In this document: positions 32,347-64,000 of the stretch, piece after piece
Numbering within the stretch: position 1 is the stretch's first letter
Layout: the number at the start of each line of letters is the position of its first letter
Assembly: GCA_963813105.1 (NCBI GenBank)
Contig: CAWEXT010000003.1
Location: 31,790 to 95,789 of the forward strand
DNA: 64,000 nucleotides
Source of the DNA: an uncultured Simkaniaceae bacterium
Lineage (GTDB): Bacteria > Chlamydiota > Chlamydiia > Chlamydiales > Rhabdochlamydiaceae
Direction: 5' to 3'
Made by a program: the position numbers and the translations under genes
Notes under the pieces: generated by a model
What the model was told of the DNA's origin: nothing
Seen by the model: only the letters and a program-made list of their open reading frames with translations
Database searches by the model: none

Positions 32347-33185
32347 ATGACGAAAAAATTTCGACCAGTCACACCAGGACAGCGTGAGCTAATTCTCAAT
32401 AGCAACGAAGAGCTGACACGTGTAAAAGGGCGTGCTACGGTAGCCCCGCTTAAGTCTCTTATGCAGCATAAGCGAAGAACCAACGGCCGCAACCACCATG
32501 GGCATATTACTTGCCGCCATCGCGGCGGAGGCGTGAAGAGCTTTTACCGTCTTGTCGATTTCAAACGCGACAAAGAGAAAATCGCTGCAAAAGTAGCTTC
32601 CATTGAATACGATCCTAATAGAACAGCGCACATTGCTCTTCTTCACTATGCAGATGGGGAAAAGCGATATATCATCGCTCCTCAAGGGCTCAAAGTAGGC
32701 GATACCATCTCATCCGGCCCTGAAGCGCGAGTTCAATGTCGGATGCTGCATGCGGCTGAAGAACATGCCGCTGGGTTCCGTGATTCACAACATTGAAATG
32801 TATCCAGGACGCGGTGCTAAGCTCGTCCGCTCTGCAGGGCTTTCTGCCAGCTGATGGCGAGAAGCGGTGGCTATGTGACGCTCAAAATGCCATCAGGCGA
32901 AGTGCGCATGGTCAATGAAAATTGCAGAGCGACATTTGGCGCAATCTCCAATGCGGAGCGCAACTTGCGCGTAGAAGGAAAAGCTGGACGTATGCGTTGG
33001 AAAGGGATTCGTCCGACAGTTCGCGGTACGGCGATGAACCCTGTCGACCACCCGCACGGTGGCGGTGAAGGGAAGCACAATGGATACCTACCCCAGACAC
33101 CATGGGCGATGTACACCAAAGGATTTCAGAACTCGATCTAAGCGCAAATCTAACGAAAATGATCGTAAAAGATCGCAGAAAATAG
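32347..33185 (+). pseudogene. rplB: 50S ribosomal protein L2, frameshifted as assembled (at least 3 shifts)
   Basis: L2 peptides occur in three frames: [14 protein letters not shown]; [26 protein letters not shown]; [24 protein letters not shown]; tail KMIVKDRRK. Confidence 0.88.
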
Positions 33186-39117: not shown

Positions 39118-40502
39118 ATGAAAATGCTGCAAGCGATAAAAAATATTTTGTCCGTCGAAGAACTCAAGGAGAAAATCGTCTTTACGCTTCTGATTCTTGT
39201 CGTTTGCCGCATTGGTGCTTATATTCCTGTTCCCGGCATCAATGGCGATGCGGCAGCAGCAGTTTTCGGCAGCACAGGCGGAGGCCAAAATCTCTTCCAG
39301 TTGATGGATGTTTTTTCCGGTGGCGCATTTGCGCAGATGACGATCATAGCGCTTGGCGTGATGCCTTATATCTCCGCCTCGATCATCATGCAGCTTCTCA
39401 TGGCGCTCGTTCCAGTCTTTCAAAGAGAGATCAGAGAGAATCCTGAGGCAGGCCGGAGAAAGATGGGCAAGTGGACCCGGATGTTGACTGTTGCTGGCGT
39501 TCTTTCAGGCTGGACTCTTTGCGAAATATGCTGTTCAGCTTAACGCGGGCACAGCCCAGGCATCATCGTCAATGAACTGCTCGATGTCCAAGATTTTTGG
39601 AGTCCCTGGCTGTTTTATCTTCATCGTCATGTCGACGATGACTGCCGGAACGATTATGCTCATGTGGATCGGCGAGCAGATCACCGAAAAAGGGGTAGGC
39701 AATGGCATCAGCTTGATCATCACGATCGGCATCCTCTCTGCCTTCCGAGCACGCTCGGATCGGTCATCCAGCAGCTCAATCTCGATTCGCAAGAACCCGG
39801 CCAGACTGACCTTTTCCACGCTCTTAGTTCTACTTTGCGTCTTTGTCTTCATCATCATAGGAACGATTTTGATCATCCAAGGACAGCGAAGAATTCCTTT
39901 GCAGTATGCACGGCGAGGCGGCAGCGCAGAAGAGGTACAGGGCGGAAATGCTCATATTCCTCTAAAGATCAACTATGCAGGCGTAATTCCCGTTATTTTC
40001 GCCTCCTCGCTCCTGATGTTCCCGGCGACGATCGGCCAATTCGTCGGACAAGGGAACATGGCTAGGCACAGTTCGCGAATTGGCTATCGCCTGGACAATG
40101 GCTTTATCTCATCGTCTATGTACTGCTCATCATCTTTTTCACTTATTTTTGGACAGCGACCCAATTCCACCCCGAGCAGATCGCCTCCGATATGAAGAAA
40201 AATGGAGCTTTTATTCCAGGGATTCGCCAAGGCAAACCGACACAAGATTATCTTGAATCGACGATGAATCGCATCACCTTTGCCGGTGCGATTTTTTTGC
40301 GGCTATCGCGATTTTGCCAACCCTTGTAGGAAAATTTTTACAGTGTAGATGCCACTATCACCTATTTTTTGGAGGAACCTCCCTGTTGATTCTAGTCGGG
40401 GTTGTTTTGGACACGACGAAGCAGATTGAGTCTCATCTACTTATGAAACGCTACGACGGATTTATGAAAGGGTCGTTTGCGAGGAAGATGAGAGCGTTAT
40501 AA
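39118..40502 (+). pseudogene. secY: Preprotein translocase subunit SecY, multiple frameshifts as assembled
   Basis: The first ~125 aa are intact (RIGAYIPVPGIN, FSGGAFAQMTIIALGVMPYISASII). Later SecY peptides fall in other frames (MLMWIGEQITEKGVGNGISLIITIGI; [23 protein letters not shown]). Confidence 0.88.
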
Positions 40503-41391: not shown

Positions 41392-42468
41392 ATGGCAGTA
41401 AAGTATGGCAAGTTTGAGTTGCCGAGAAAAATCAAAGTCGATGAAACGATCGCGTAAACCTCATCATGCTCGTTTCATCGCAGAGCCATTTGAAAGAGGA
41501 TTTGGGCATACCGTCGGGAATGCTCTAAGAAGAATCATGCTCACCTCTCTGGAAGCGCCAGCCATTATGTCCTTCCGCATTGAAGGCGTTCCTCACGAAT
41601 ATATGGCTGTCGAAGGAATCATCGAAGACATGACGCACATCGTCCTCAACCTGAAAGGTGCGCTCCTCCGCAAACTTCCGACCGAAGAAGAGTCGGGAAC
41701 ACGCGAAAATCGCATCATCACCAAAATGCTCGATATTACACCTGAGCAGCTCGAAAAAGCTGGCGGCCAGTATTTCGTGACACTGAAAGATCTTATCGGC
41801 AGAATCCGACTTCGACCTCGTCAATCCCGATCTTGCTCATTTTCACGGTGACAAAGCCGATGATCAAACGAGTCGATCTCAAAGTCGGCGTCGGCAGAGG
41901 ATATGTCCCTTCTGAACGCCATCATGTCTTGGACAAAGTCGTCGATGAGATCGTCATCGACTCTGCTTTTTCTCCGGTGCGCCTCGTCAATTATTTTGTC
42001 GAGAACACACGCGTCGGACAAGATACCGACTACGACCGTTTGATTCTCGAAGTGACGACCGATGGACGGATCACCCCCGAAGAAGCGCTTACATTTGCAA
42101 CGCAGATCGGCATCTTCCACTTTGAAGTGTTCGATCAGATCAAGCTCCACAACATTTCTTTCGAACGCGATCAAGTCGAACTCAACACCGACCGCGATGC
42201 GATGATGGCCAAACTCGCTCTCAAGATCAACGAGATCGAACTTTCTGTTCGTTCGACCAACTGCTTAGCAGGCGCTAACATCGATACGATCGCCGAACTC
42301 GTCGTCATGCCAGAATCCGAAATGCTGAAGTTCCGAAATTTCGGAAAAAAATCGCTCAATGAAATCAAAGCCAAACTCGAAGAAATGGGACTTTATCTCG
42401 GCATGGACCTCAGCCAAATTCGGCATCACTCGCGACAACGTCAAGACAAGTCATCACAGAATATTTGA
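41392..42468 (+). pseudogene. rpoA: DNA-directed RNA polymerase alpha subunit, frameshifted as assembled (3' end approximate)
   Basis: FIAEPFERGFGHTVGNALRRIMLTSLEAPAI; GRGYVPSE; C-terminal domain [35 protein letters not shown]. At least 3 shifts. Confidence 0.88.
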
Positions 42469-49016: not shown

Positions 49017-50285
49017 ATGAAACTTTTTTTGACGCTCTTAGTTCTTTTGTTGAACGTATCTATTTTCGGCAATCCATTATCGCTTGCCGAATTAGTCGAT
49101 ATTGGTTTGAAAAATAATCCAGAAACAGAAAAAGCCTGGGCCAATACCAAACGTGCACAAGCCGCGCTGGGCATTTCCAGAAGCACGAATTATCCCACCG
49201 TCGATGCAACGGGAAATGTGATGCACGGAAGGGAACTTAAATTCCCCAACGGCCCCAACACCAACTTTACAAGCGTCGGAGCCGAACTTTGCCTTACCTA
49301 CCTTCTCTATGATTTTGGAGAAAGGAATGCCACGATTGAGGCCACTAAGGATGCATTGCGTGTAGCCAATTGGGGAGCCGACTTTACGATGCAGCAAGTC
49401 ATCTACAAAGTTTGCTCGCACTACTACGAATATTTGAATGCAGTCGAATTGCTCAAGATGAAAGAAAGCACCTTGAAAGATGCGAATCTAATCTGCGATG
49501 CAGCAGGGGAGCTCCATAAAGCCGGGCTTCGCCGTGGTGGCGATCTCAATTTGAGCAAGGCTGAAGTTGCGCAGATCCAGATGGATGTCGCGCAGCAAAA
49601 GGCGCAGGTGGCGATTGCCTACGGCAAGCTTCTCACAAGTCTTGGCCTTCCGATCGAATCGAAAATCGAAGTGCAGACCAATGCCGAAGGTATGGAAATC
49701 CCCTTTTTTTCTGAAGGGACTTCTCAATTGATCGCTGTTGCGGAAGACCAACGCGCCGATCTCATGGCCAAAAAAGCGAGTCTTGGAGAAATGAAGCAAT
49801 TAGTAAAGCGGGCAAACCGCGCGCCACTGCCGAAATTTCGTGCATTAGGTCAGGGCGGATGGCTGCAATACAACAAGCACCAGGGCAGCAGTTATAACTA
49901 CAATGTCGGAATTGCTCTTGAAATGCCGATTTTCAAAGGCTTCGAATATACCTACAACAAGCGGCTTGCTCTTGCGAATGAAGAAATTACTCTCGCCGAA
50001 CTCAAAGAACTGCAAGATGCAATTGCCCTAGAAGTTTTGACTTATAGTGAATCGGTCAAAGCCGCTCAAGAAGCGCTCAAGTGGAGCGACGAGTACATGG
50101 ATGAGTCGATGAAATCCTATGAAGGATCCCTGGAGGCCTATAAAGCTGGGTTGCAGAACATCTTCGATCTCATCCAGTCGCAAAGATTTCTTGGCGACGC
50201 ACGCATCAGAAAAGCGCAAGCGAGAACGCAATGGCTCGTATCCCTTGCTGAGCTCGCATTTGCAACAGGGAGCATCATGAAATGA
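49017..50285 (+). CDS. TolC-like outer-membrane efflux protein
   Basis: Signal peptide. Two-fold repeat with OEP-type heptad-rich segments. The N-terminus LSLAELVDIGLKNNPE is typical of the family. First gene of a three-gene efflux operon. Confidence 0.8.
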   Translation: MKLFLTLLVLLLNVSIFGNPLSLAELVDIGLKNNPETEKAWANTKRAQAALGISRSTNYPTVDATGNVMHGRELKFPNGPNTNFTSVGAELCLTYLLYDFGERNATIEATKDALRVANWGADFTMQQVIYKVCSHYYEYLNAVELLKMKESTLKDANLICDAAGELHKAGLRRGGDLNLSKAEVAQIQMDVAQQKAQVAIAYGKLLTSLGLPIESKIEVQTNAEGMEIPFFSEGTSQLIAVAEDQRADLMAKKASLGEMKQLVKRANRAPLPKFRALGQGGWLQYNKHQGSSYNYNVGIALEMPIFKGFEYTYNKRLALANEEITLAELKELQDAIALEVLTYSESVKAAQEALKWSDEYMDESMKSYEGSLEAYKAGLQNIFDLIQSQRFLGDARIRKAQARTQWLVSLAELAFATGSIMK

Positions 50286-51343
50286 AATATATCCTTTTAG
50301 GCCTTGTCCTAGCTAGCTGCTCAGGAAAAGCTCCTCAGCAAACCAACTTTGTTCCTCCCGCTGTGCCTGTCACGACAGCGGAAGTAGCTATTCGCGATGT
50401 CCCTCTTTATTTCGAAGAGATGGGAATAGTCACACCTTATCAAACGGCAGAAGTCAAACCGCAAGTCAATGGGCTCATCACTTCTGTGCATTTCCAAGAA
50501 GGACAATGGGTCGAGCAGGGCGAGCTACTCTATATCATCGAAGAAGCACCTTATAGCATTAAAGTACAAGAAGCCGAAGCGCAGCTTGCGCAGAATATGG
50601 CGAATCTTCAAAACGCAAAGAAAAAACTCGATCGCTACAAAAGCTTAAGCAAACAAGATCTCATTGCGCAGGTGGAGTGGGATGAACTCGAAACACGTAT
50701 TACCCTTTCTGAAGCGATGGTCAAAGGCGATGAAGCAAGACTTGCCGCAGCGAAACTCGATCTTGCTCGTTGCCGAATCGTCGCGTCGATTTCTGGAAGG
50801 ACGAGTAAAACTTCTCTGCAAGCAGGCAACATGGTCGCCAGCCACACGACACTCGTCACCTTGTCGCAAGAAAAGTCGCTCTTTGTCGATTTCTCGATCA
50901 CAGAAAGAGAGCTTTACCAACTTCCTTCTTCCAAAATTTCTTTCGAAGTATTCGCGGCAGGTGAAGAGGAATGCCTTGCGTCAGGAGAAGTGACATTCAT
51001 CGACCATACGATCGACCCTGAATCAGGAATGATCGCGGCTAGTGGCTTGCTTACCCATATGCACAAGCCCCTTTTTACAGGGCAAATTGTCCGACTCCAT
51101 GTCTTCTTCGGCAATAAGCTTCAGGCTAAACTCGTTCCTCTCAGAGCGATCAAGACCAATCAATCAGGCGCCTATCTTTTTTCCGTGAAGGAAGATAGCA
51201 CTGTGGAACTACGCAACGTCAAACTCGGACCTGAAGAAAAAGGAATGATCGTCGTCGAAGAAGGTCTTGACGGCGCAACTAAAGTCGTCACCGAAGGACA
51301 ACTACGGCTTTTCCCTGGGTTAAAAGTTGAGGAAGTTCACTGA
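50282..51343 (+). CDS. RND efflux periplasmic adaptor (membrane fusion protein)
   Basis: Lipoprotein-like start (LVLASCSG). Lipoyl/hairpin pattern (VKPQVNGLITSVHFQEGQWVEQGELLYIIE...AKLDLARCRIVASISGR). Overlapping start and stop with both neighbours. Confidence 0.82.
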   Translation: MKYILLGLVLASCSGKAPQQTNFVPPAVPVTTAEVAIRDVPLYFEEMGIVTPYQTAEVKPQVNGLITSVHFQEGQWVEQGELLYIIEEAPYSIKVQEAEAQLAQNMANLQNAKKKLDRYKSLSKQDLIAQVEWDELETRITLSEAMVKGDEARLAAAKLDLARCRIVASISGRTSKTSLQAGNMVASHTTLVTLSQEKSLFVDFSITERELYQLPSSKISFEVFAAGEEECLASGEVTFIDHTIDPESGMIAASGLLTHMHKPLFTGQIVRLHVFFGNKLQAKLVPLRAIKTNQSGAYLFSVKEDSTVELRNVKLGPEEKGMIVVEEGLDGATKVVTEGQLRLFPGLKVEEVH

Positions 51344-54300
51344 TGAACCCTTCTGCGCCGTTTATCAAAAAACCGGTAATGACCATCATCCTCATGGCAG
51401 CGATTGTCCTGATGGGGATTCTCTCGTTTTTCAAACTCCCTGTCACAGATCTCCCGAGCGTCGATTATCCGATGCTCAATGTTTCCGCGATGTATACAGG
51501 CGCAAGCCCCGAGGTCATGGCGCGTACTGTTGCAGCGCCTCTGGAAAAAGAACTCGTCAACATCAATGGCCTCAAGCACATCACTTCACAAAGCAGTCGA
51601 GGAATGACATGGATTACCCTCATGTTCGATCTCGATCGCGACATGAACGACCTCGTCCAAGATGTGCAAAGTGCTTTAAAAAAAGCGGAAAATGCTCTTC
51701 CTCCCGACCTCGATCAAAGGCCAACCTATTACAAAGCCGATGCCCATTCAGGATGCGATCATCTATCTCATCCTCACTTCGTCCTCGTCTACCTCTTTCT
51801 GAGCTTTATGATTATGCACATGCCCGCATCGAACAACGCATAGCGCGCATCGAAGGCGTCGGCAAAGTCGAAGTTCATGGATCTCCCTATGCTGTCCGCA
51901 TTTCTCTCAATCCCGAACTGATGACTGCCCGAGGACTCACCTTTGAAGAAGTGCGCACATCGATTGCGCAAGCAACAGGCACCCTTCCTTTAGGCAGGCT
52001 CGATACTCCCGGCCGCAAGTTCACTCTCGAACTTCCTGGCAGGTTCCAAAATGCCGCCGACTTTGCCAACCTTGCTCTCACTCCTCATGTGCATTTAAAA
52101 GATATTGCCGAAGTGAATGACGGTCTGGAAGCAGGAAGAAGTTTTCCACTATGTCACCAAAGACCAAGACAATCTCGCAGTCATCTTCGGCATCCAAAAA
52201 CAAAATAATGCCAACGCCGTCAAGATTTCTCAAGAACTGAAAAAACTCTTACCCGAACTAAGAGCAGAACTTCCCTCTACCATGCAGCTCGAACTCTGGT
52301 TCGACAAAGCGAACTGGATCAAAGAAGCGATTCAAGATGTCGAATGGTCCCTAATCCTAGCATTTATTCTCGTTCTCGGCGTCATCTATTTAAGTCTTGG
52401 GCGCCTCCGAGAAACTCTCGTTGCAGCCGCAGCGCTTCCTCTTTCGATCATCGGCACGCTCATCGTCATGCAGCTGCTCCATTTCAACCTCGATCTGCTT
52501 TCTCTGCTCGCGCTAACGCTTGCCATGGGATTCGTCATCGACGATGCCATCGTCGTCCTTGAGAATATCGTCCGTCATCGAGAAAAAGGTCTTTCCCCAC
52601 TGCAAGCGGCTCTACAAGGATCCAAGCAGATCTGCTTTACAATTTTTTCCATGACCCTCTCGCTCGTCGCTGTTTTCATCCCCATGCTCTTCATGCAAGA
52701 CATCACCGGCAGGCTTTTTAGAGAGTTCAGCGTCACTCTTGCCATCTCGATCCTAGTTTCAGGTTTTGTCTCGCTCACGCTTACACCGATGCTCGCGAGC
52801 AAATTTAGCTCTTCGCATCAGAAGCCCGCTCCGCTGTTCAATACCGCGCTTCTCAGTTTCTACAAACGCACTCTCCATTGGTGCTTGAACCACAGAAAAA
52901 CAACGCTCTCTTTTGCCTGCGGAATGGTCGGACTTACCGTCATGCTTTTCCGTTTTCTTCCGATCAATCTCTTCCCGGAAGAAGATCGCGGATTCATTTG
53001 GAGCTTCGTGCAAATGCCGGGCGGCATGTCAAAAAAAGACACCGAACTCTATCAAGGCAAACTCAACAGGATCGTCCAAGAACATCCTGCCGTCGATACC
53101 TTCGCTACCCTCAATTTCAAAGATTTCCAAATTTATCTCATCCGTCTGATGCAGTCCGATCGCGTCCCCCAAGCAGCTGTCGTAGGCGAACTGCAGACCC
53201 AACTCAATAGCATTCCAGGAACACAAGCCTTCATGCGCGGGATTCAGCTCATCTCGAATACCATGGGTGGTTTTACACGAAATAACTACCAGTACTTTTA
53301 CGGGGCTCCGACCTCGATGAAGTGCGCGTTGCCGCGGAAGTCTTAAAGCAAAAACTCACGCTAGATCCGAGCTTCATCTATCCCGACCTCAACATGAAAG
53401 CCGACGATCCCAAGCTCGAAATCACTATCTTCACGCAGCTTGCCGAAAAGCTCGGCCTCACACGCCAGTCTATTCAAACCCTTCTGCAAAATGCCTATGC
53501 CGGTGGAAGCATCGGCAAAATCGAGAAAAACTCCGAGCAGTACAACGTCTTCCTCGAACTCGGACCGCAATTCCAAAAAAATACCGCCGCGCTTTCCAAG
53601 CTCTACTTAAAGACTCCCGCCGGCAATAACGTTCCTCTTAAATCCATCGCCTCCTGGAAAGAAAGTGTTGGCCTGCAGACTATCGAACACATCGATCTTC
53701 TTTCTTCCGCTGTACTTTCCTTTGACGTTTCCAAGGAAATCCCCCTTACCGAAGCCCTGGATAAACTCAAAAAAATCGCGGCTGACACACTCCCTCTTCC
53801 GTCTGCGGCAAACTCGAAGGTCTTGCGGAAATGGTCGACAAAACCAGCAACGATACCGCCATCCTTCTCCTTCTCGCCATCGTCGCCATGTATGTCGTCT
53901 TAGGAATTCTCTACGAGAGTTTCATCCATCCTTTCACGATTCTCTCAGCGCTTCCCTTTGCTTGCCTCGGCGGGATTCTTACCCTCCTCATTTTTCAAGA
54001 GCCCCTTTCGCTTTACAGTATGGTCGGATTCCTTCTCCTGATCGGCATCGTGAAGAAGAATGGCATCATGATGGTCGACTATGCTCTGGAAATTCAGCGT
54101 TCGGAAAATAAACTCTCCCCTCAACGCAATCCAAGAAGCATGCCAGATACGATTCCGGCCCATCATGATGACGACCATCGCTGCTGTCATGGGCGCAGTC
54201 CCCATTGCCATCGGCATCGGCGCCGGCTCAGAAACTAGCCGCGGACTTGGTCTTGTCATTGCCGGTGGTTTGATCTTCTCGCAGTTCCTCACTCTGTTCA

Positions 54301-54377
54301 TCACGCCGATTCTGTATCTCTATCTTGAGAAACTCCGATCAAGAAAGAAGAAAACACCGATTCTTCAACAGCAGTAA
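51343..54377 (+). pseudogene. RND efflux permease (AcrB/MdtB-like), about 1011 codons, at least 5 frameshifts as assembled
   Basis: The N-terminus FIKKPVMTIILMAAIVLMGILSFFKLPV..LP is followed by family peptides across frames (LAMGFVIDDAIVVLENIVRHRE; ILYESFIHPFTILSALP; IGIVKKNGIMMVDYA; RFRPIMMTTIAAVMGAVPIA). Confidence 0.85.
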
Positions 54378-54597
54378 ACCAACTTCATCCTTCCTTAAAA
54401 TTTCCTCAAGAGACAACACTCAAAAATTTGTTGTCTTTAAGCGCATGTCTGCGTAAAAATCAAATTCTATAAATTGCCATCAAATTTCAAAAATTTATTT
54501 AAATGTATCACGTTCTTTTTAAAAAAATCTTTTCACATATTCAGCTAGTGAAATTACGAACAATTTTCATGCAACCTCGAGTTCATGCAGATAAAAA

Positions 54598-57626
<3,029 letters not shown>

Positions 57627-57723
57627 TTTCCGAAATCCGACGAAATAAATGGTCGATTGTTGAAGAATGGTTTTACGAATGAATTTAGGATTTCATTAGA
57701 TGTATTTAAATTTAAGGCAAAAA

Positions 57724-58638
57724 ATGATCTCTACTATTAGAGTTTGCTGTTTTGTAATATTTACTTTTTCCCCATTGCTGAATATTCTGAGCCGAAGAAT
57801 TAGAAAAAAGAAGAAAAGAAATATGCTTTATCTGTTTGTGCGGTTTTTAAAAATGAAGCGAAGTACTTGAAAGAGTGGATCGAATATCATCAATTGGTAG
57901 GAGTCGATCATTTTTATTTATATAACACAGCTAGCAAAGATCGTTCAGTTAGTGTACTGCAACCATATATTAGAAAGGGGCTTGTCACACTGATCAATTG
58001 GTACGATTTGCCTAGTCGCGCAAAAGGATGATGCCACATGGGCTTTAGCTTTACAAATTCCGGCTTATGAACATGCGGCAAAATATAAATCTGTCAAGGA
58101 TACAAAATGGTTGGTTTTTCTCGAGGTCGATGAATTTTTAGTTCCACAGGGAGAAAGCAAGATTACCGATTTATTGGAAAAATATGATGAATATCCAGGC
58201 ATTGTCTTAAAGAGCGATTATTTTGATGCCTCTACCGACACGTTTCCTAAACCAAAACTACTCATTGAAGCGGTAACACTAACAGGAAGAGCAGATCAAA
58301 GTCTCGAAAGAAGTGTCGAAAAAACGATCATGAAACCGGAGTTTTGCGAAACATTTATATGGCCACCGTATCAATGCAGATTTAAAAGCGGGAAAACTGC
58401 TATGCGGGCGAATCGGAATGAATTGCGGGTTAATCGCTATGCAAAACGCAATTCTGCCGATTCTCTTTTTGGAAAAATCAAAAATAAGCTATACATTGAT
58501 ACCCGAATGTTCTCCGAAGATGAAATCAGAGAACTTCTGGAAGTCGGCTATGAAATTGAAGATCAGGAGCGAGTCATCTTTCGGTTCGTGCCCGATCTGC
58601 AAAAAAAAATGGGATACGATTCCGGATGGGGGTGGTGA
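57724..58638 (+). pseudogene. Glycosyltransferase family 92 (DUF23)-like protein, at least 2 frameshifts as assembled
   Basis: N-terminal hydrophobic anchor (MISTIRVCCFVIFTFSPLL). A shifted frame gives LSVCAVFKNEAKYLKEWIEYHQLVGVDHFYLYN. Then comes WLVFLEVDEFLVP (a DxD-like acidic motif). Confidence 0.6.
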
Positions 58639-58729
58639 AACTCCTTTATATCTCAAAGACTCAAGGAGGCAATAAACGTGACATTGCGTGTTTAAGAAAC
58701 AATCCAAAACATCTCCAAAGAAGGTGAAT

Positions 58730-60311
58730 ATGAAAAGAGCCTTGATGATCGTTTCTCTGAATGTTTTCTTTTTCTTCGCTATCAGGTGGGCCCATTGTCT
58801 GGAACACTCCTATTACTATTTCTTCTGCAACTGGGACTGCAACAAATGCGGATATCGCTACGGATCCGAGCGGAAATCTTGTAGCAGTATGGGTGGAAAA
58901 CAACACCGTTCAGGCCAGCACACAGCCCGTGAATGGAAGCTGGAGCACTCCAACCACATTGTCTTCAGCAACCGCATCTTCTCCAAAAGTTGTGGTCGAT
59001 TCTAATGGAAACGCTACGGCAATTTGGATAGATGGTGGTGCGGCTACAACAGCGACTCTTCCTTTCAATGGCAGCTGGAGTGCGCAGACAACCCTATCGG
59101 TGACAGGTGCAAGCGCCCCAGACCTTGCAGTGGATGCAAGTGGAGATGTCGTGGCAATTTGGACACTAAGTGGGACAATTCAATCGGCAACCCATCTTTT
59201 CGGCGGGATCTGGCCTTTATTACCGGATACAATATCAGTTACCGGAGTCACGTCTGATACTCCGCATATCGCTATTGGAGGACCCAATAAAACGGCTGTT
59301 GCGACATGGCATGGTTTTAATACCATTGATACGGTCTATGCAGTATCGAAAAATTTGGGTGGTCTTAATATTTGGGGGACCGTTCAAACAATTTCTCCTG
59401 CGACAATCAGTAGCGCAAATCCGAGAGTTGCGGTAGGCCCAGCAGGGAACGCCTTGGTGAGTTTTTTTGAATTCGTCCTCAAGGACGCCAATGAGTATTC
59501 TGCTGTCGGTCTGAGCGCAGCTTTTATACCCTATGGCGGCGTAGCGAGGATATCTGCCACTATAGAGGGTATAGGGATCGTCAATCCTGCAAACTTATCA
59601 TCAAGTCTCGTTGTCGATAGTTCTGGAAACGCTCTTGCTACTTGGACGAGTTCTATTGATGGTGCCAACTTTAGTCTGAATTCTGTCGTGCTGCAATCGA
59701 ATGGAACTTTGTCTGAATTGGTGGAACTTTATTCTGATCTCTATATTTATCAACAGGATCTAATGGTAGATTCTGTTGGAAACGCTTTTCTTGCTTTTAT
59801 GAGTACAAATCCTAGTAATCCTTCTTCTTTGGTTATCCAAACTGAAGAGATAAGTATCGATTCTTTTTCACCCAATTCTTGGTATAATCAGGCCATAGTT
59901 TCTACCAATACTATCGCAGGGTATCCTCGAATTGCAGCTACTTACTCAAATGGGACAACGTTGACCGCCGCTATCTGGGAAAGCACGGATGGGACGAACA
60001 CCTTTATTCAAGCAGCAACAGGATCAGGAAGAGTGCTTAGCCCTGCTTCGAATCTTACGATTGTCCAGAATGTGAATGATTTTACGATTTTTAATGAGTA
60101 TTACAACACACTAAGCTGGTCGGCGAGCACAGATCCCAATCTTCAGGGATATGTGATTTATCGCAATGGCGACATCATCGCAGTGGTCTCTTCTGCCGTA
60201 TTACAATGGGTCGATGATAACAGGAATCCTAGCGTTTCGGACACCTATGGTGTTGCGGCATATGGTTCTGGATTGGATCAGAGTATAACCATAACCGCCA
60301 CCTATCCGTAA
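58730..60311 (+). pseudogene. Secreted repeat protein, paralogue A: signal peptide, ~8 propeller-blade-like repeats and a C-terminal FN3-like domain; one frameshift in the leader
   Basis: AAGGTG-N5-ATG, then MKRALMIVSLNVFFFFAI, then a shift into ORF 58761-60311. Repeats of D-x-x-G-N-x-[VA]-A-[VI]-W ... G-x-W-S ... L-S occur every ~45-55 aa. The C-terminus is YNTLSWSASTDPNLQGYVIYRNGDII...YGVAAYG. Confidence 0.75.
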
Positions 60312-60330
60312 TTATTAATTAGGAGAAAAA

Positions 60331-61894
60331 ATGAATAGAATATTAGCGATCTTATTTACAGTGCTTTTTGTTCCCTCTTCAGTGTTCCTATTACTTGGTC
60401 AAATCCACCTGTTGTTCTTTCATTGACAGGAGTCAATGCTTCAGATCCGCATATTGCCATGGACACAAGTGGAAATCTAGTCGCCGTTTGGGTAGAAAGC
60501 AATATGGTTTTAGCGAAAACCAAATTGGTTTCTGGAAGCTGGAGTTCTGCGACAACACTTTCTAGTGCGACGGCTTCTTCTCCAAGATTGGTCATTGATC
60601 CGAGTGGGAACGCTACGGCTATTTGGCTAGATGGCGGTGTCGTCACCGCTGCTACGATTCCTTTCAATGGGAGCTGGGGTGCAAGAACAGCATTATCAGG
60701 TTCTGGAGCAACTAATCCCGAACTTGCTATCGATCCCAATGGAAATGTCGTTGCCATTTGGACGACAGGGGGGATCATTCAATCAGCGACAAAGCTTTTC
60801 AACGGGAATTGGCCAATTTTTTTTGACACGCTTTCTCTTACCGGAATTCCATCGGATTTCGCGCATGTTGCCATAGGGAATAATGGCAATGTTGTTGCCA
60901 TCTGGTATGGCGTTGAGAATTCAGTCGATACGATCTATGCTGTGAGCAAACCTGTCAATGGATCATGGGGTCTTGTCCAAGTTGTTTCTGGGGCTATGAA
61001 TGGCAACTACCCGAAAATCGCAGTTGATCCGAATGGAAATGCTGTAGCGGTTTGGTATGCGTTTAATACATCGAATAATTTTTATTCTGATGTGATAGTC
61101 CAAGCTGCCTCATTGCCGATGAATGGAACCTGGGAAGCTCCCGTCACTATTTCAAATGTAATGGGACTGATGAATCCCGCTAATTTCGATGCTCATGTCC
61201 GTTTCGATGGCGCGGGCAATGCGATCGCGGTATGGAATACCTCTTCCGATGGGGAAACATTCACCTTGCAATCCTCTGTTCTTCAAGTGAACGGATCCTG
61301 GTATCGCCAGCGGTTGTGGTTTCTGGCCTCTATGCCTTCACTGAAGATTTAGCGGTGGATGCAAATGGAGATGTGCTTCTCGCCTTCATGAATGCGAATG
61401 GAGCCTCGATCACCGTCTATTCGACGGAGATGAGCGTAGCCGCAGTTACGCCGAATATCTGGGCGAGTGCAACGACCATTTCTTCGGGAACTCGCAATGG
61501 GTATCCTCGTATTGCTGAAACAAACAATGGAAATAATGTTCATGCGGCTGCACTTTGGCTCAGTTACAGCGGAACAGCTGACGTCGCTTGTAGCGCTAAC
61601 GGGAACGAGGAGGACATATTACCTCCCACGAGTCCAACAGTTGTTCAAACAATGACTGGTTATGGGCTGTTTACGGATTATATCAATACAGTGAGTTGGC
61701 ATGCCAGCACTCAGCATAGTCTTTCGGGTTATGCCGTGTACCGAAATGGCGAAGTGATTGCAAAAGTCAATAATACTACTACGCAGTTCGTCGATCACAA
61801 TAGGAATCCTGCTGTAGCGGATACTTATTGAATGGCAGCGGCATTCGGTAGTGGGAGCGAACAGAGCGCGATTGTTTTTGTGATAGCTCCGTAA
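60331..61894 (+). pseudogene. Secreted repeat protein, paralogue B; 2 frameshifts and one in-frame TGA (61829-61831)
   Basis: AGGAG-N7-ATG. Leader MNRILAILFTVLFVP. Same repeat architecture and FN3-like tail (YINTVSWHASTQHSLSGYAVYRNGEVI). After the TGA the frame continues as MAAAFGSGSEQSAIVFVIAP, homologous to the tails of A and C. Confidence 0.75.
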
Positions 61895-61907
61895 AGAAAG
61901 CAATTCG

Positions 61908-61946
61908 AAAACCCTCGTCTTTTGAAAGAAATCCGAGGGTTTTTTT
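61908..61946 (+). terminator. Rho-independent terminator after paralogue B
   Basis: AAAACCCTCG, a 16-nt loop, CGAGGGTTTT, then a T-run. Confidence 0.7.
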
Positions 61947-62002
61947 ATTTGCTCATCAAACCTGTAATTTCCTATTCTTAAGAAAACAATAAAGAGCGAA
62001 AG

Positions 62003-63556
62003 ATGAAAAAAATGTTCATAGCATTGTTCTTTATCGCTTTCTCTACTCCTTTGCTGGGTGTTCCTATTACGTGGGCTACACCTTCTACCTTATCCACCTT
62101 AGGGGTCAATTCACTCGATCCCCACGTGGCTTTCGATTCAAGCGGAAATATCGTTGCTGTTTGGAATGAAAATGGTGTTATTAAAGCGAGCACCCAGCCT
62201 GTCAGCGGAAATTGGGGTACGGCTGTTGCTATTTCAAGTTCTGGAGCATCCGCTCCTAGATTGTTTGTCGATCCCAGTGGAAATGCTACGGCAATATGGA
62301 TCGATAGTGGAGGTGTAAAAGCCGCAACGCTTCCCTCTGGAGGAAGCTGGAGTGCTGCGACGAGTGTTTCTTTAGCAGGAGCTTCTACTCCTCAGCTTGC
62401 TGGGGATCATAGCGGAAATGTCGTTGCCATTTGGGAGAGCAGTGGCGGTGGTATTCAATCAGCGACAAAATCTTTTGGTGGGAGTGGCCTTTGCCATTAT
62501 TAGTCGATACACTTTCGACAACAGGTGATAACCCTCAAGTAGCTATAGGCGCCAATGGAACAGTTGTTGCCATCTGGCATGATGTTACTTCCATCGGTAC
62601 CATTTATGCTGCGACGAAAATCCTGAATCTTGTTTGGCGGCGAAACAAGCGATTTCGAATTCCACACAAGATAGTGCCTATCCGAAGATAGCGGTCGATT
62701 CGAATGGAAATGCCTTAGCTCTTTGGTATCGATATGCACTAACAAATTCCGTCTATAGGAACGTTGTACAATCTGCATCACTTCCAGTGAGTGGAAGCTG
62801 GACCGCCCCTGTCGATATTTCAACTGTAGGTTTTCACAATCCAGCTAATTTAATCTTACGAGTTGCTTTCGATGGCAATGGAAATGCTCTTGGAGCTTGG
62901 ACTTCTTCTCAAGATGAGAGTTATTACCAGGTTAATACTGCGGTATTACCTGCTAATGGAGTCTGGACAGAACCGAGTACGCTCTTTTATGATCTATACA
63001 CTACCGCGCAAGATATAGCGGTTGATGCATTAGGGGATGCATTTATCGCTTATATGCAGACTGCCTCCTTGGTGATTGTATCATCCTATACAAATTTAGC
63101 GAGTAGTATGTCGATTTCTGGACTGATAAGGCTCTTGTGTCCAATGGAGCAAATAATGCGTTTCCTCGTATTGCTGTAGTGAACAACGGAAATACGATTT
63201 ATGCAGCAACAACTTGGATACGATACAATGGTTCTAATACCGTTATAAGGGTAGCAACAGGAACAGGCTCGGTTTTTTTACCACCGTCGAATCTTATGGT
63301 GACACAGAGCACGAATAATTTTGGAGTTTTAACGGAGTATTACAATACCCTTACTTGGACAGCAAGTTCTGATCCCAATCTTACTGGATATATCATCTTT
63401 CGAAATGGGGTAGAGATTGGAAATTTAACTTCGAGCTATTTGCAATTTACTGACCATAATCGACAGATAAGCTCATCGGTTACGCTAACCTATGGAGTAG
63501 CGGCAGTTGGAGCTGGAAGTAATCAAAGCGCAACGGTTTCTGTAAGCTTCCCTTAA
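62003..63556 (+). pseudogene. Secreted repeat protein, paralogue C; about 3 frameshifts
   Basis: Leader MKKMFIALFFIAFSTPLLG. Same DxxGN..A.W repeats across ORFs 62003-62503, 62431-62691, 62634-63179 and 63137-63556. FN3-like tail YNTLTWTASSDPNLTGYIIFRNGVEI...YGVAAVG. Confidence 0.75.
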
Positions 63557-64000
63557 TTCGCTTTTTGCGCGAGGGCTTCATTAGCTTTTGCAGCGAGTTT
63601 TTCGACAGCAAAGGCGAGATTCTTTTCCACGCATTCTTTCACATGCGCAGGCAAGTCTTTTATCGAAAGGAGTTGTTGGCAAGCTGTCATAGACTCTTCA
63701 TACCGTCATCCAATAAGCGCAAATGGAATACTCTTAAAGTATCCCGTAATTATAAATCCACGATTCGACAAAAAGAGGATCGGAGGAGAGAGGGACGCTC
63801 AGGTCGAAATTGGCGAAGAGATAGCCTAGAAGATAGTTTTCCTTCATCCGGTAGTAATGGCTGAGTCGATAGAGAGGCTCTGTGCGTGAAGGACGAAATT
63901 GAAAGGCTTTGGTGTAGCTGTTGCTAATAGTTGATTCGGGCATATTCAGGGTTTCTTGCAAAACAGCGATTTGGTACATCGACCAGAAAACCTCTTGATC
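63553..64000 (-). pseudogene. 3' part of a gene running off the window: helical (TPR-like) C-terminal region of the kind found on some family-2 glycosyltransferases; contains an in-frame TAA (63734-63736) and a frameshift
   Basis: The minus-strand peptide is ...RPSRTEPLYRLSHYYRMKENYLLGYLFANFDLSVPLSSDPLFVESWIYNYGIL-stop-EYSICAYWM.. It is then followed, in a shifted frame, by YEESMTACQQLLSIKDLPAHVKECVEKNLAFAVEKL. The family assignment is from memory of similar tails and has low certainty. Confidence 0.35.

Follow-up and report, generated by a model that had tools for sequence, protein, structure and literature searches.

Three tandem paralogues predicted to encode exported eight-bladed beta-propellers in an uncultured Simkaniaceae bacterium

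The window analysed here, a 64,000-nucleotide stretch of DNA from an uncultured Simkaniaceae bacterium, contains three adjacent genes, A, B and C, that encode homologous proteins of about 520 amino acids built from repeated units. A family hidden Markov model (HMM), trained on database homologues, was scanned over the whole window and detected exactly three family copies, all located on the plus strand (Table 1). Their number and positions agree with a preliminary description of this DNA, in which a tandem triplication had been proposed. After repair of the reading frames, the three proteins were found to share 47-49% amino-acid identity overall and 54-58% over their first 150 amino acids, and the latter value lies within the 50-60% that had been estimated by eye. 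The same locus is present on two contigs of ENA sample ERZ25039540, contig_29974 (L044) and contig_29973 (L048), and the orthologous triplet of L044 consists of intact open reading frames (ORFs) of 524, 520 and 521 amino acids. In blastn comparisons of the window with L044, paralogous copies showed approximately 65-69% nucleotide identity. An assembly duplication, which the preliminary description had named as a possible source of the three copies, was ruled out because the copies are too divergent, and the intact triplet recurs in an independent contig. This comparison confirmed A, B and C as real paralogues. A is the most divergent copy, and Trp is replaced at 3 of the 15 family-conserved positions in its repeat alignment. 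The promoter and terminator scan yielded nothing above chance.

Table 1. Coordinates of the propeller genes, their neighbours and split essential genes in the window
Feature	Position	Strand	Remarks
Paralogue A	58730..60311	+	526 amino acids after frame repair; family HMM match E 6e-182, single piece 58761-60308
A, predicted signal peptide	~58730-58790
A, predicted eight-blade propeller	~58794-60035
A, predicted FN3/Ig-like tail	~60042-60308
Paralogue B	60331..61894	+	521 amino acids after frame repair; family HMM pieces 60360-61310 and 61304-61828, in different frames
Paralogue C	62003..63556	+	518 amino acids after frame repair
C, family HMM pieces	62003-62485, 62467-62649, 62640-63110, 63113-63553	+	Three frames
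GT92-family glycosyltransferase	57700..58638	+	PF01697, 54.8 and 24.3 bits on two fragments (cut-off 23)
Collagen-like (GPT/GxY repeat) gene(s)	54598..57626	+	Pfam Collagen; BclA_C E 2e-5, 24.8 bits, below the cut-off of 38
Start of downstream block	63556..64000	-	tblastn of a 130-amino-acid ORF of L044, 89% identity at 63707-63943
rplB	32347-32796		C-terminal half in another frame
secY	39118-40195		Split at Pfam profile positions 51/53
rpoA	41405-42468		Split inside the dimerisation domain

Cutting the proteins at a recurrent GxW motif yielded eight units of 45-57 amino acids in each of them, with the consensus GxW(S)..T(L)S....P..A(V)D..GNA.A.W....(I/V)QAAT.P. A single-blade HMM that was trained solely on other family members, without the window sequences, detected eight repeats in B (E 1e-19 to 4e-4), seven clear repeats and a weak seventh blade in C, and seven repeats in A, where the divergent seventh blade was missed; the best of 300 shuffled control sequences reached E 0.22. 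In an alignment of 88 homologues, the repeat Trp is at least 90% conserved at 15 of 16 positions, and in blade 7 of this alignment Met replaces the second Trp. Blade 1 contains a near-invariant, non-repeated Glu-Asn pair (Glu46/Asn47, within AVWVEN). The same 88-sequence alignment served as input for an AlphaFold2 model of protein A, which was obtained with a pLDDT of 94.5 and a pTM of 0.91 and is an all-beta structure with four strands per repeat. Every top Foldseek match of this model is a propeller. The C-terminal tail of approximately 90 amino acids forms seven beta-strands at residues 430-515 of the model. Its matches all fall below threshold and include the N-terminal beta-sheet domain of YesW (E 0.027 for PDB 2z8r), ZmpA, the FN3-like region of NagJ and Ig_RIMBP2, while PF18370 was recorded below threshold in 30 of the 88 family members. 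Blade HMM, repeat alignment and model together show each protein as a predicted eight-bladed beta-propeller followed by a probable FN3/Ig-like beta-sandwich tail, in agreement with the about eight repeats, propeller and FN3-like tail of the preliminary description.

The N-termini of C and of the repaired A and B were inspected by eye and consist of a start rich in K/R and a hydrophobic stretch of 12-16 residues without a lipobox Cys. Signal-like N-terminal sequences of this kind are present, likewise by eye, throughout the family. That all three genes encode signal peptides had been proposed before, and a signal-like sequence lies in frame as sequenced in C only. For A and B it holds solely after frame repair, which is backed by the homologues P0001 and P0002 and by the loci L044 and L048. 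The best explanation of these N-terminal sequences is that A-C encode Sec-exported proteins with a mature part of about 500 amino acids.

None of the three genes is present as one clean ORF from signal peptide to stop, and seven disruptions were counted in the 4.8 kb of A-C. In A, a 1-nt insertion at ~58760 separates the predicted signal peptide from the mature part (58761-60311), which is an unbroken ORF of 516 amino acids. B carries 1-nt deletions at ~60375 and ~61301 and an in-frame TGA at 61829-61831, and C has 1-nt deletions at ~62484, ~62640 and ~63116. This density of lesions would fit a decaying pseudogene cluster, in which the frameshifts and the stop are real and the three genes are non-functional relics; the absence of three conserved Trp from A and its dN/dS value, the highest of the three genes, would fit as well. 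However, secY, rpoA and rplB, which are essential, are broken in the same manner in the window (Table 1), as are acrB and the GT92 gene, and the indels of the window are therefore largely assembly errors. Of the seven lesions, five are missing from the L048 contig, which is 98-100% identical to the window over 57.5-64 kb and has other lesions instead. L048 reads CCCC at 60372 where the window has CCC and contains one extra base at 61299, the sites of the two frame breaks of B, and it encodes YGIA (TAT GGG ATC GCG) at the TGA patch of B. At 62484 it reads AGC TGG (SW) and at 62640 it has an extra base, so that both of these C breaks are absent. Across A-C, L048 and the window differ by about 20 more indels, mostly single bases missing from L048. 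Since L048 is free of these five lesions, the disruptions are regarded as mostly long-read assembly noise. The same pattern was seen in another Nanopore-type metagenome-assembled genome (L032, 6479-13012), in which four tandem copies are shattered into 14 ORF fragments. Only one stop codon is left in 1,565 codons after frame repair, and the intact orthologues of L044 also speak against decay. Two lesions are shared in position by both assemblies and would count in favour of it: the window and L048 carry the same frameshift in C, at ~63111-63118, which is possibly real, and the patch at 58756-58760 behind the signal peptide of A is aberrant in both, with an extra A in the window and an in-frame TAA in L048. 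Pseudogenes were rejected as the main reading in view of the L048 comparison and the broken essential genes, and a cluster of relics is considered very unlikely. As the disruptions are mainly assembly errors, the A-C genes are most likely functional; these two lesions may be errors as well or may be real.

Comparison with both contigs, covering acrB (51700-54500) with its flanks (49474-64000), showed the window itself to be a mosaic. At 49.9-51.7 kb it matches L044 with 100% identity, from 54.5 kb on it matches L048 with 98-100% identity, and within acrB the informative sites drift gradually from the L044 to the L048 haplotype. The acrB gene contains several frameshifts, with six single-base indels relative to L044. 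This pattern probably stems from a long-read consensus that is blended or chimeric; natural recombination is the alternative. Before L048 was considered, the 100% identity of the efflux-pump genes to L044 and the 51-82% identity of the propeller proteins had suggested a hypervariable locus between near-identical strains. This idea was withdrawn because the window switches haplotype inside acrB. Compared like for like, the identities between the two lineages are 79% for TolC, 70% for MFP, 84-88% for GT92, 71% for A, 82% for B and 51% for C, so that C alone stands out. The MFP gene encodes 353 amino acids in the window (50282-51343, overlapping the start of acrB) and 317 amino acids in L044 (809-1762), where it is shortened by one extra C (GGACCCTG versus GGACCTG); L044 therefore also carries indel errors. 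Apparent pseudogenes or hypervariability in such a noisy and probably blended consensus should not be taken at face value.

The repeat was compared with known propeller families. Neither Pfam nor NCBIfam has a model for the propeller, and no solved relative of the propeller was found in the PDB with a full-length or single-blade sequence profile. Pfam matches to WD40 or Kelch were absent, and NHL matched once among the 88 members (E 0.063). On the window proteins the Pfam BNR, Kelch and NHL repeat models gave nothing significant. Where BNR models scored, the scores were sub-threshold and non-localised. SBBP (PF06739) reached 17.8 bits on a fragment of B and 21.6 bits on a fragment of C at a cut-off of 20.5, with no individually significant stretch, and it matched 4 of the 88 members; weak BNR_4 and SBBP signals were also recorded in distant relatives. 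The family resembles the sialidase-like clan (SBBP, BNR_4, BNR_2) through weak repeat-level matches and through a DxxGN...W hairpin that recalls the Asp-box. In contrast to the canonical Asp-box SxDxGxTW, the chlamydial repeat has D and G three apart and G and W six apart and occurs in eight copies, and BNR sialidase-type propellers, which have a six-bladed catalytic domain with an Arg triad, reach TM scores of only 0.33-0.5 to the chlamydial model. The earlier view that the repeat is neither a canonical Asp-box nor WD40 is supported by this spacing and by the insignificant Pfam repeat scores. Whether the propeller family is undescribed, as had been suggested, has a mixed answer: it is covered by no curated model, but it has the weak ties to SBBP and BNR_4 and is a large family. 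In a profile search over 1.84 billion cluster representatives, the number of matches was 32,721 with a limit of E<=1e-3 and fell to 3,869 with E<=1e-30, and in the latter set some may owe their match to the tail alone.

The structural neighbours of the model give a hint of a function. The top Foldseek matches in the PDB are PLL, PLL2, PLL4, PHL and CV39L (E 1.6e-12 to 6e-10, target-normalised TM 0.64-0.72), with 12-16% identity in the structural alignments; for the best of them, the Photorhabdus PLL lectins, the TM is about 0.7 and the identity 14-16%. These 'bangle' lectins of the PLL family (Photorhabdus PLL, PLL2-5 and PHL; Chromobacterium CV39L) share with the chlamydial proteins an all-beta propeller, 'W-motif' blades of about 45-50 amino acids and conserved Trp. 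According to two reports on them, PLL lectins bind fucose or O-methylated sugars in inter-blade pockets via CH-pi stacking with Trp (PMC6943638; PMC12203525). The same reports describe several homologous PLL lectins in one Photorhabdus genome, a bacterium that lives with eukaryotic hosts, and in both respects the chlamydial situation is alike (PMC6943638; PMC12203525). PLL lectins differ in lacking an FN3-like tail, whereas the chlamydial family has both this tail and a predicted Sec-type signal peptide. With its eight blades and no detectable sequence homology, the chlamydial family falls outside the PLL family, and the idea that its proteins may work like PLL lectins is put forward as a hypothesis and not as a classification. 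A lectin or adhesin role, as already suspected in the preliminary description, appears plausible because the PLL-family lectins are the top structural neighbours.

The next matches in the Foldseek ranking are sialidases, PL25 and L-rhamnose-alpha-1,4-D-glucuronate lyases and CylK (E 1e-10 to 1e-7, TM 0.33-0.52). They raise the alternative that A-C are carbohydrate-active enzymes, that is, secreted glycosidases, lyases or transglycosylases that act on a glycan made by neighbouring transferases or on host glycans. The near-invariant Glu-Asn of blade 1, which is not repeated in other blades, would fit such a role, as would a GH130 gene in one neighbourhood (L045) and the resemblance of the tail to a beta-sheet domain at the N-terminus of YesW, an eight-bladed propeller enzyme with this small beta-sandwich domain. 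The match to this PL11 rhamnogalacturonan lyase is, however, below threshold and confined to the small domain, which is N-terminal in YesW and C-terminal in the chlamydial proteins, and YesW was absent among the 50 Foldseek matches listed. Furthermore, the TM scores to enzymes are low compared with those of about 0.7 to the lectins, conservation is found mostly at the level of the repeat and not in a few blade-specific polar residues, and no CAZy-type family was matched. An enzymatic role is therefore judged to be quite unlikely. In the BFVD collection of viral structures the matches are generic propellers. With A (58761-60308) as query, giant-virus proteins annotated as collagen-like (Indivirus, Fadolivirus) with a similar propeller appeared at ranks 12 and 42. 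This pairing of collagen and propeller may echo the neighbouring genes described below, and as the propeller matches are generic it is regarded as a lead only.

The family is widespread in environmental Chlamydiota. Homologues of A-C, about 520 amino acids long and annotated as 'hypothetical proteins', come from metagenome-assembled genomes of this group, Rhabdochlamydiaceae and Parachlamydiales among them, and none of these homologues has a Pfam domain. At 27 of 33 Chlamydiota loci the genes are present in 2-4 tandem copies. Pairing between the window and L044 is one-to-one for A with the first L044 gene and for B with the second, and loose for C with the third (see the identities above). In a neighbour-joining tree calculated without bootstrap, the six proteins of the window and L044 form their own clade. 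This clade and the pairing of the copies indicate that the triplication predates the split of the two lineages and is specific to them. The rest of the Chlamydiota shows an older split into 'first-copy' and 'last-copy' clades with further local duplications. The earlier notion of a lineage-specific expansion thus stands for the triplet, which is restricted to two sister lineages and older than their separation, but not for the arrays as such, as 2-4 copies are the norm in Chlamydiota.

Selection was analysed with gene-wide ratios of nonsynonymous to synonymous substitutions (dN/dS, Nei-Gojobori) for pairs of window and L044 genes. The ratios were 0.33 for A, 0.18 for B and 0.18 for C, where dS is saturated, compared with 0.07-0.09 for GT92 and 0.08 for MFP. 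These values indicate purifying selection over each propeller gene, somewhat relaxed in A, and the diversifying selection that had been considered possible was not upheld gene-wide.

Beyond the close homologues, approximately 130 of the best 150 representatives of the profile search have the full ~520-amino-acid architecture, and the others are large multidomain proteins, some of which match only via their FN3-like part. Outside the Chlamydiota the propeller is joined to Big_5, TIG, LysM, PKD, invasin D3 or Flg_new domains, and these partner domains point to extracellular proteins. Distant relatives with 23-31% identity were found at L035, L036 and L041 (Nitrosomonas), L038 (Pseudoduganella), L039 (Steroidobacter), L040 and L043. 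The fusions seen in these relatives (L035, L036, L038-L041 and L043) include Big_5, LysM, PKD, invasin D3 or thrombospondin-type repeats.

The genomic neighbourhood of A-C was compared between loci. In the window, TolC-MFP-AcrB genes are followed by the collagen-like gene or genes with a BclA_C-like end, the GT92 gene, A, B and C, and a block on the opposite strand. The collagen-like frames at 54598-57626 are scrambled, and two collagen proteins of 480 and 375 amino acids are encoded at this place in L044. The GT92 gene of the window is fragmented by frameshifts, and an intact orthologue of 303 amino acids is present in L044 (8910-9821). A hydrophobic signal or anchor was noted at the N-terminus of the GT92 protein, which is an unusual topology among bacterial transferases. 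L044 has the same gene order, which continues with several GT2-domain genes, one of them also with a GT10 (fucosyltransferase-family) domain. In L045, GT10, GT25, GH130 and GT2 genes accompany two propeller genes, GT92 and BclA_C, and in L047 four propeller genes are followed by GT92. Pfam hits were counted in the nearest ORFs around the arrays, 91 in all at 32 chlamydial loci. GT92 was found 19 times (25 times if the overlapping PF13704 model is included), Collagen 15 times, GT2 nine times, the inverse-autotransporter beta-domain seven times and GT25 four times, and a few ORFs belonged to O-methyltransferase families. Based on these counts the link to GT92 is a trait of the family, which is almost always found beside a glycosyltransferase, and the collagen-like link is frequent. 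The fibre gene that the preliminary description had placed beside the array is accordingly a collagen-like gene of BclA type, but GT92 is the more consistent neighbour. Nothing of relevance on collagen-like or propeller families in chlamydiae turned up in a literature search of limited reach.

Proteins with an inverse-autotransporter beta-domain, TPR proteins and O-methyltransferases recur beside the arrays (L003, L009, L022, L024 and others). These neighbours could belong to the same surface module.

The collagen-like neighbour resembles the BclA-type exosporium glycoproteins of Bacillus and Clostridioides in its (GPT)n repeats, its BclA_C-like end and the glycosyltransferases alongside. This likeness concerns the neighbour and not the propellers, and the organism differs in being a Gram-negative intracellular chlamydia without exosporium proteins. 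The comparison nevertheless offers a second alternative, namely that A-C bind proteins: as scaffold or basal-layer propellers they would dock collagen-like fibres or envelope proteins without any recognition of sugars, comparable to BxpB, which anchors BclA in the Bacillus exosporium. Beta-propellers are frequent platforms for protein interaction, and the recurrence of Collagen/BclA_C-type genes and of proteins with an inverse-autotransporter beta-domain (seven among the 91 neighbours) beside the arrays is consistent with this reading. On the other hand, the steadiest neighbour is a glycosyltransferase, the best structural matches are lectins, and no similarity to BxpB-type proteins was found, which makes a pure scaffold function unlikely.

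The explanation that is tentatively favoured, with somewhat less than even confidence, is that A-C are secreted, multivalent lectin-like proteins that work together with the co-encoded glycosylation and collagen-fibre genes. The proteins would act as modules that bind carbohydrates multivalently, either on the surface of the bacterium or inside the inclusion. Their sugar pockets would be formed between adjacent blades, with the repeated Trp residues as lining, a layout known from the Photorhabdus PLL lectins, and the Ig-like tail would act as spacer or anchor. The ligand could be a host glycan or one that the neighbouring transferases produce, such as a glycan carried by the collagen-like fibre, and the paralogues may differ in their specificity or partner. 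Several observations weigh against this proposal. The conserved Trp may be mere core-packing residues. The sialidases, polysaccharide lyases and CylK lie at most two orders of magnitude behind the lectins in Foldseek E-value, albeit with lower TM scores, and because of this proximity the ranking leaves room for an enzyme. The PLL lectins have seven blades, compared with eight here, and no PLL or PHL chain from the PDB was recovered at E<=10 with either the full-length or the single-blade profile, so that the likeness is structural only. Finally, the neighbourhood suggests a link to glycans and is silent on the role of the propeller itself.

If the lectin-like proposal is extended to the neighbouring genes, a conserved surface module can be imagined, although this wider picture is speculative and rather improbable in its full form. 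GT92, together with GT2, GT10 and GT25 enzymes, would glycosylate BclA-like fibres, and arrays of eight-bladed lectins would bind this glycan or a matching one of the host. The result would be a glycosylated 'nap', similar to an exosporium or to the surface of giant viruses, on the infectious particle, which would govern uptake by amoebae or other hosts, and the paralogues would supply different sugar specificities. Overall, A-C represent an uncharacterised family that belongs to a familiar class of fold. Its neighbourhood is conserved and informative, and it is not a new kind of system. The family is large and carries no annotation, yet it can be modelled at very high confidence. Little is known about the surface decoration and host recognition of environmental chlamydiae, and a module of lectins and glycosylated fibres would provide a concrete, testable hypothesis for 'hypothetical proteins' that are encoded in many chlamydial metagenome-assembled genomes.

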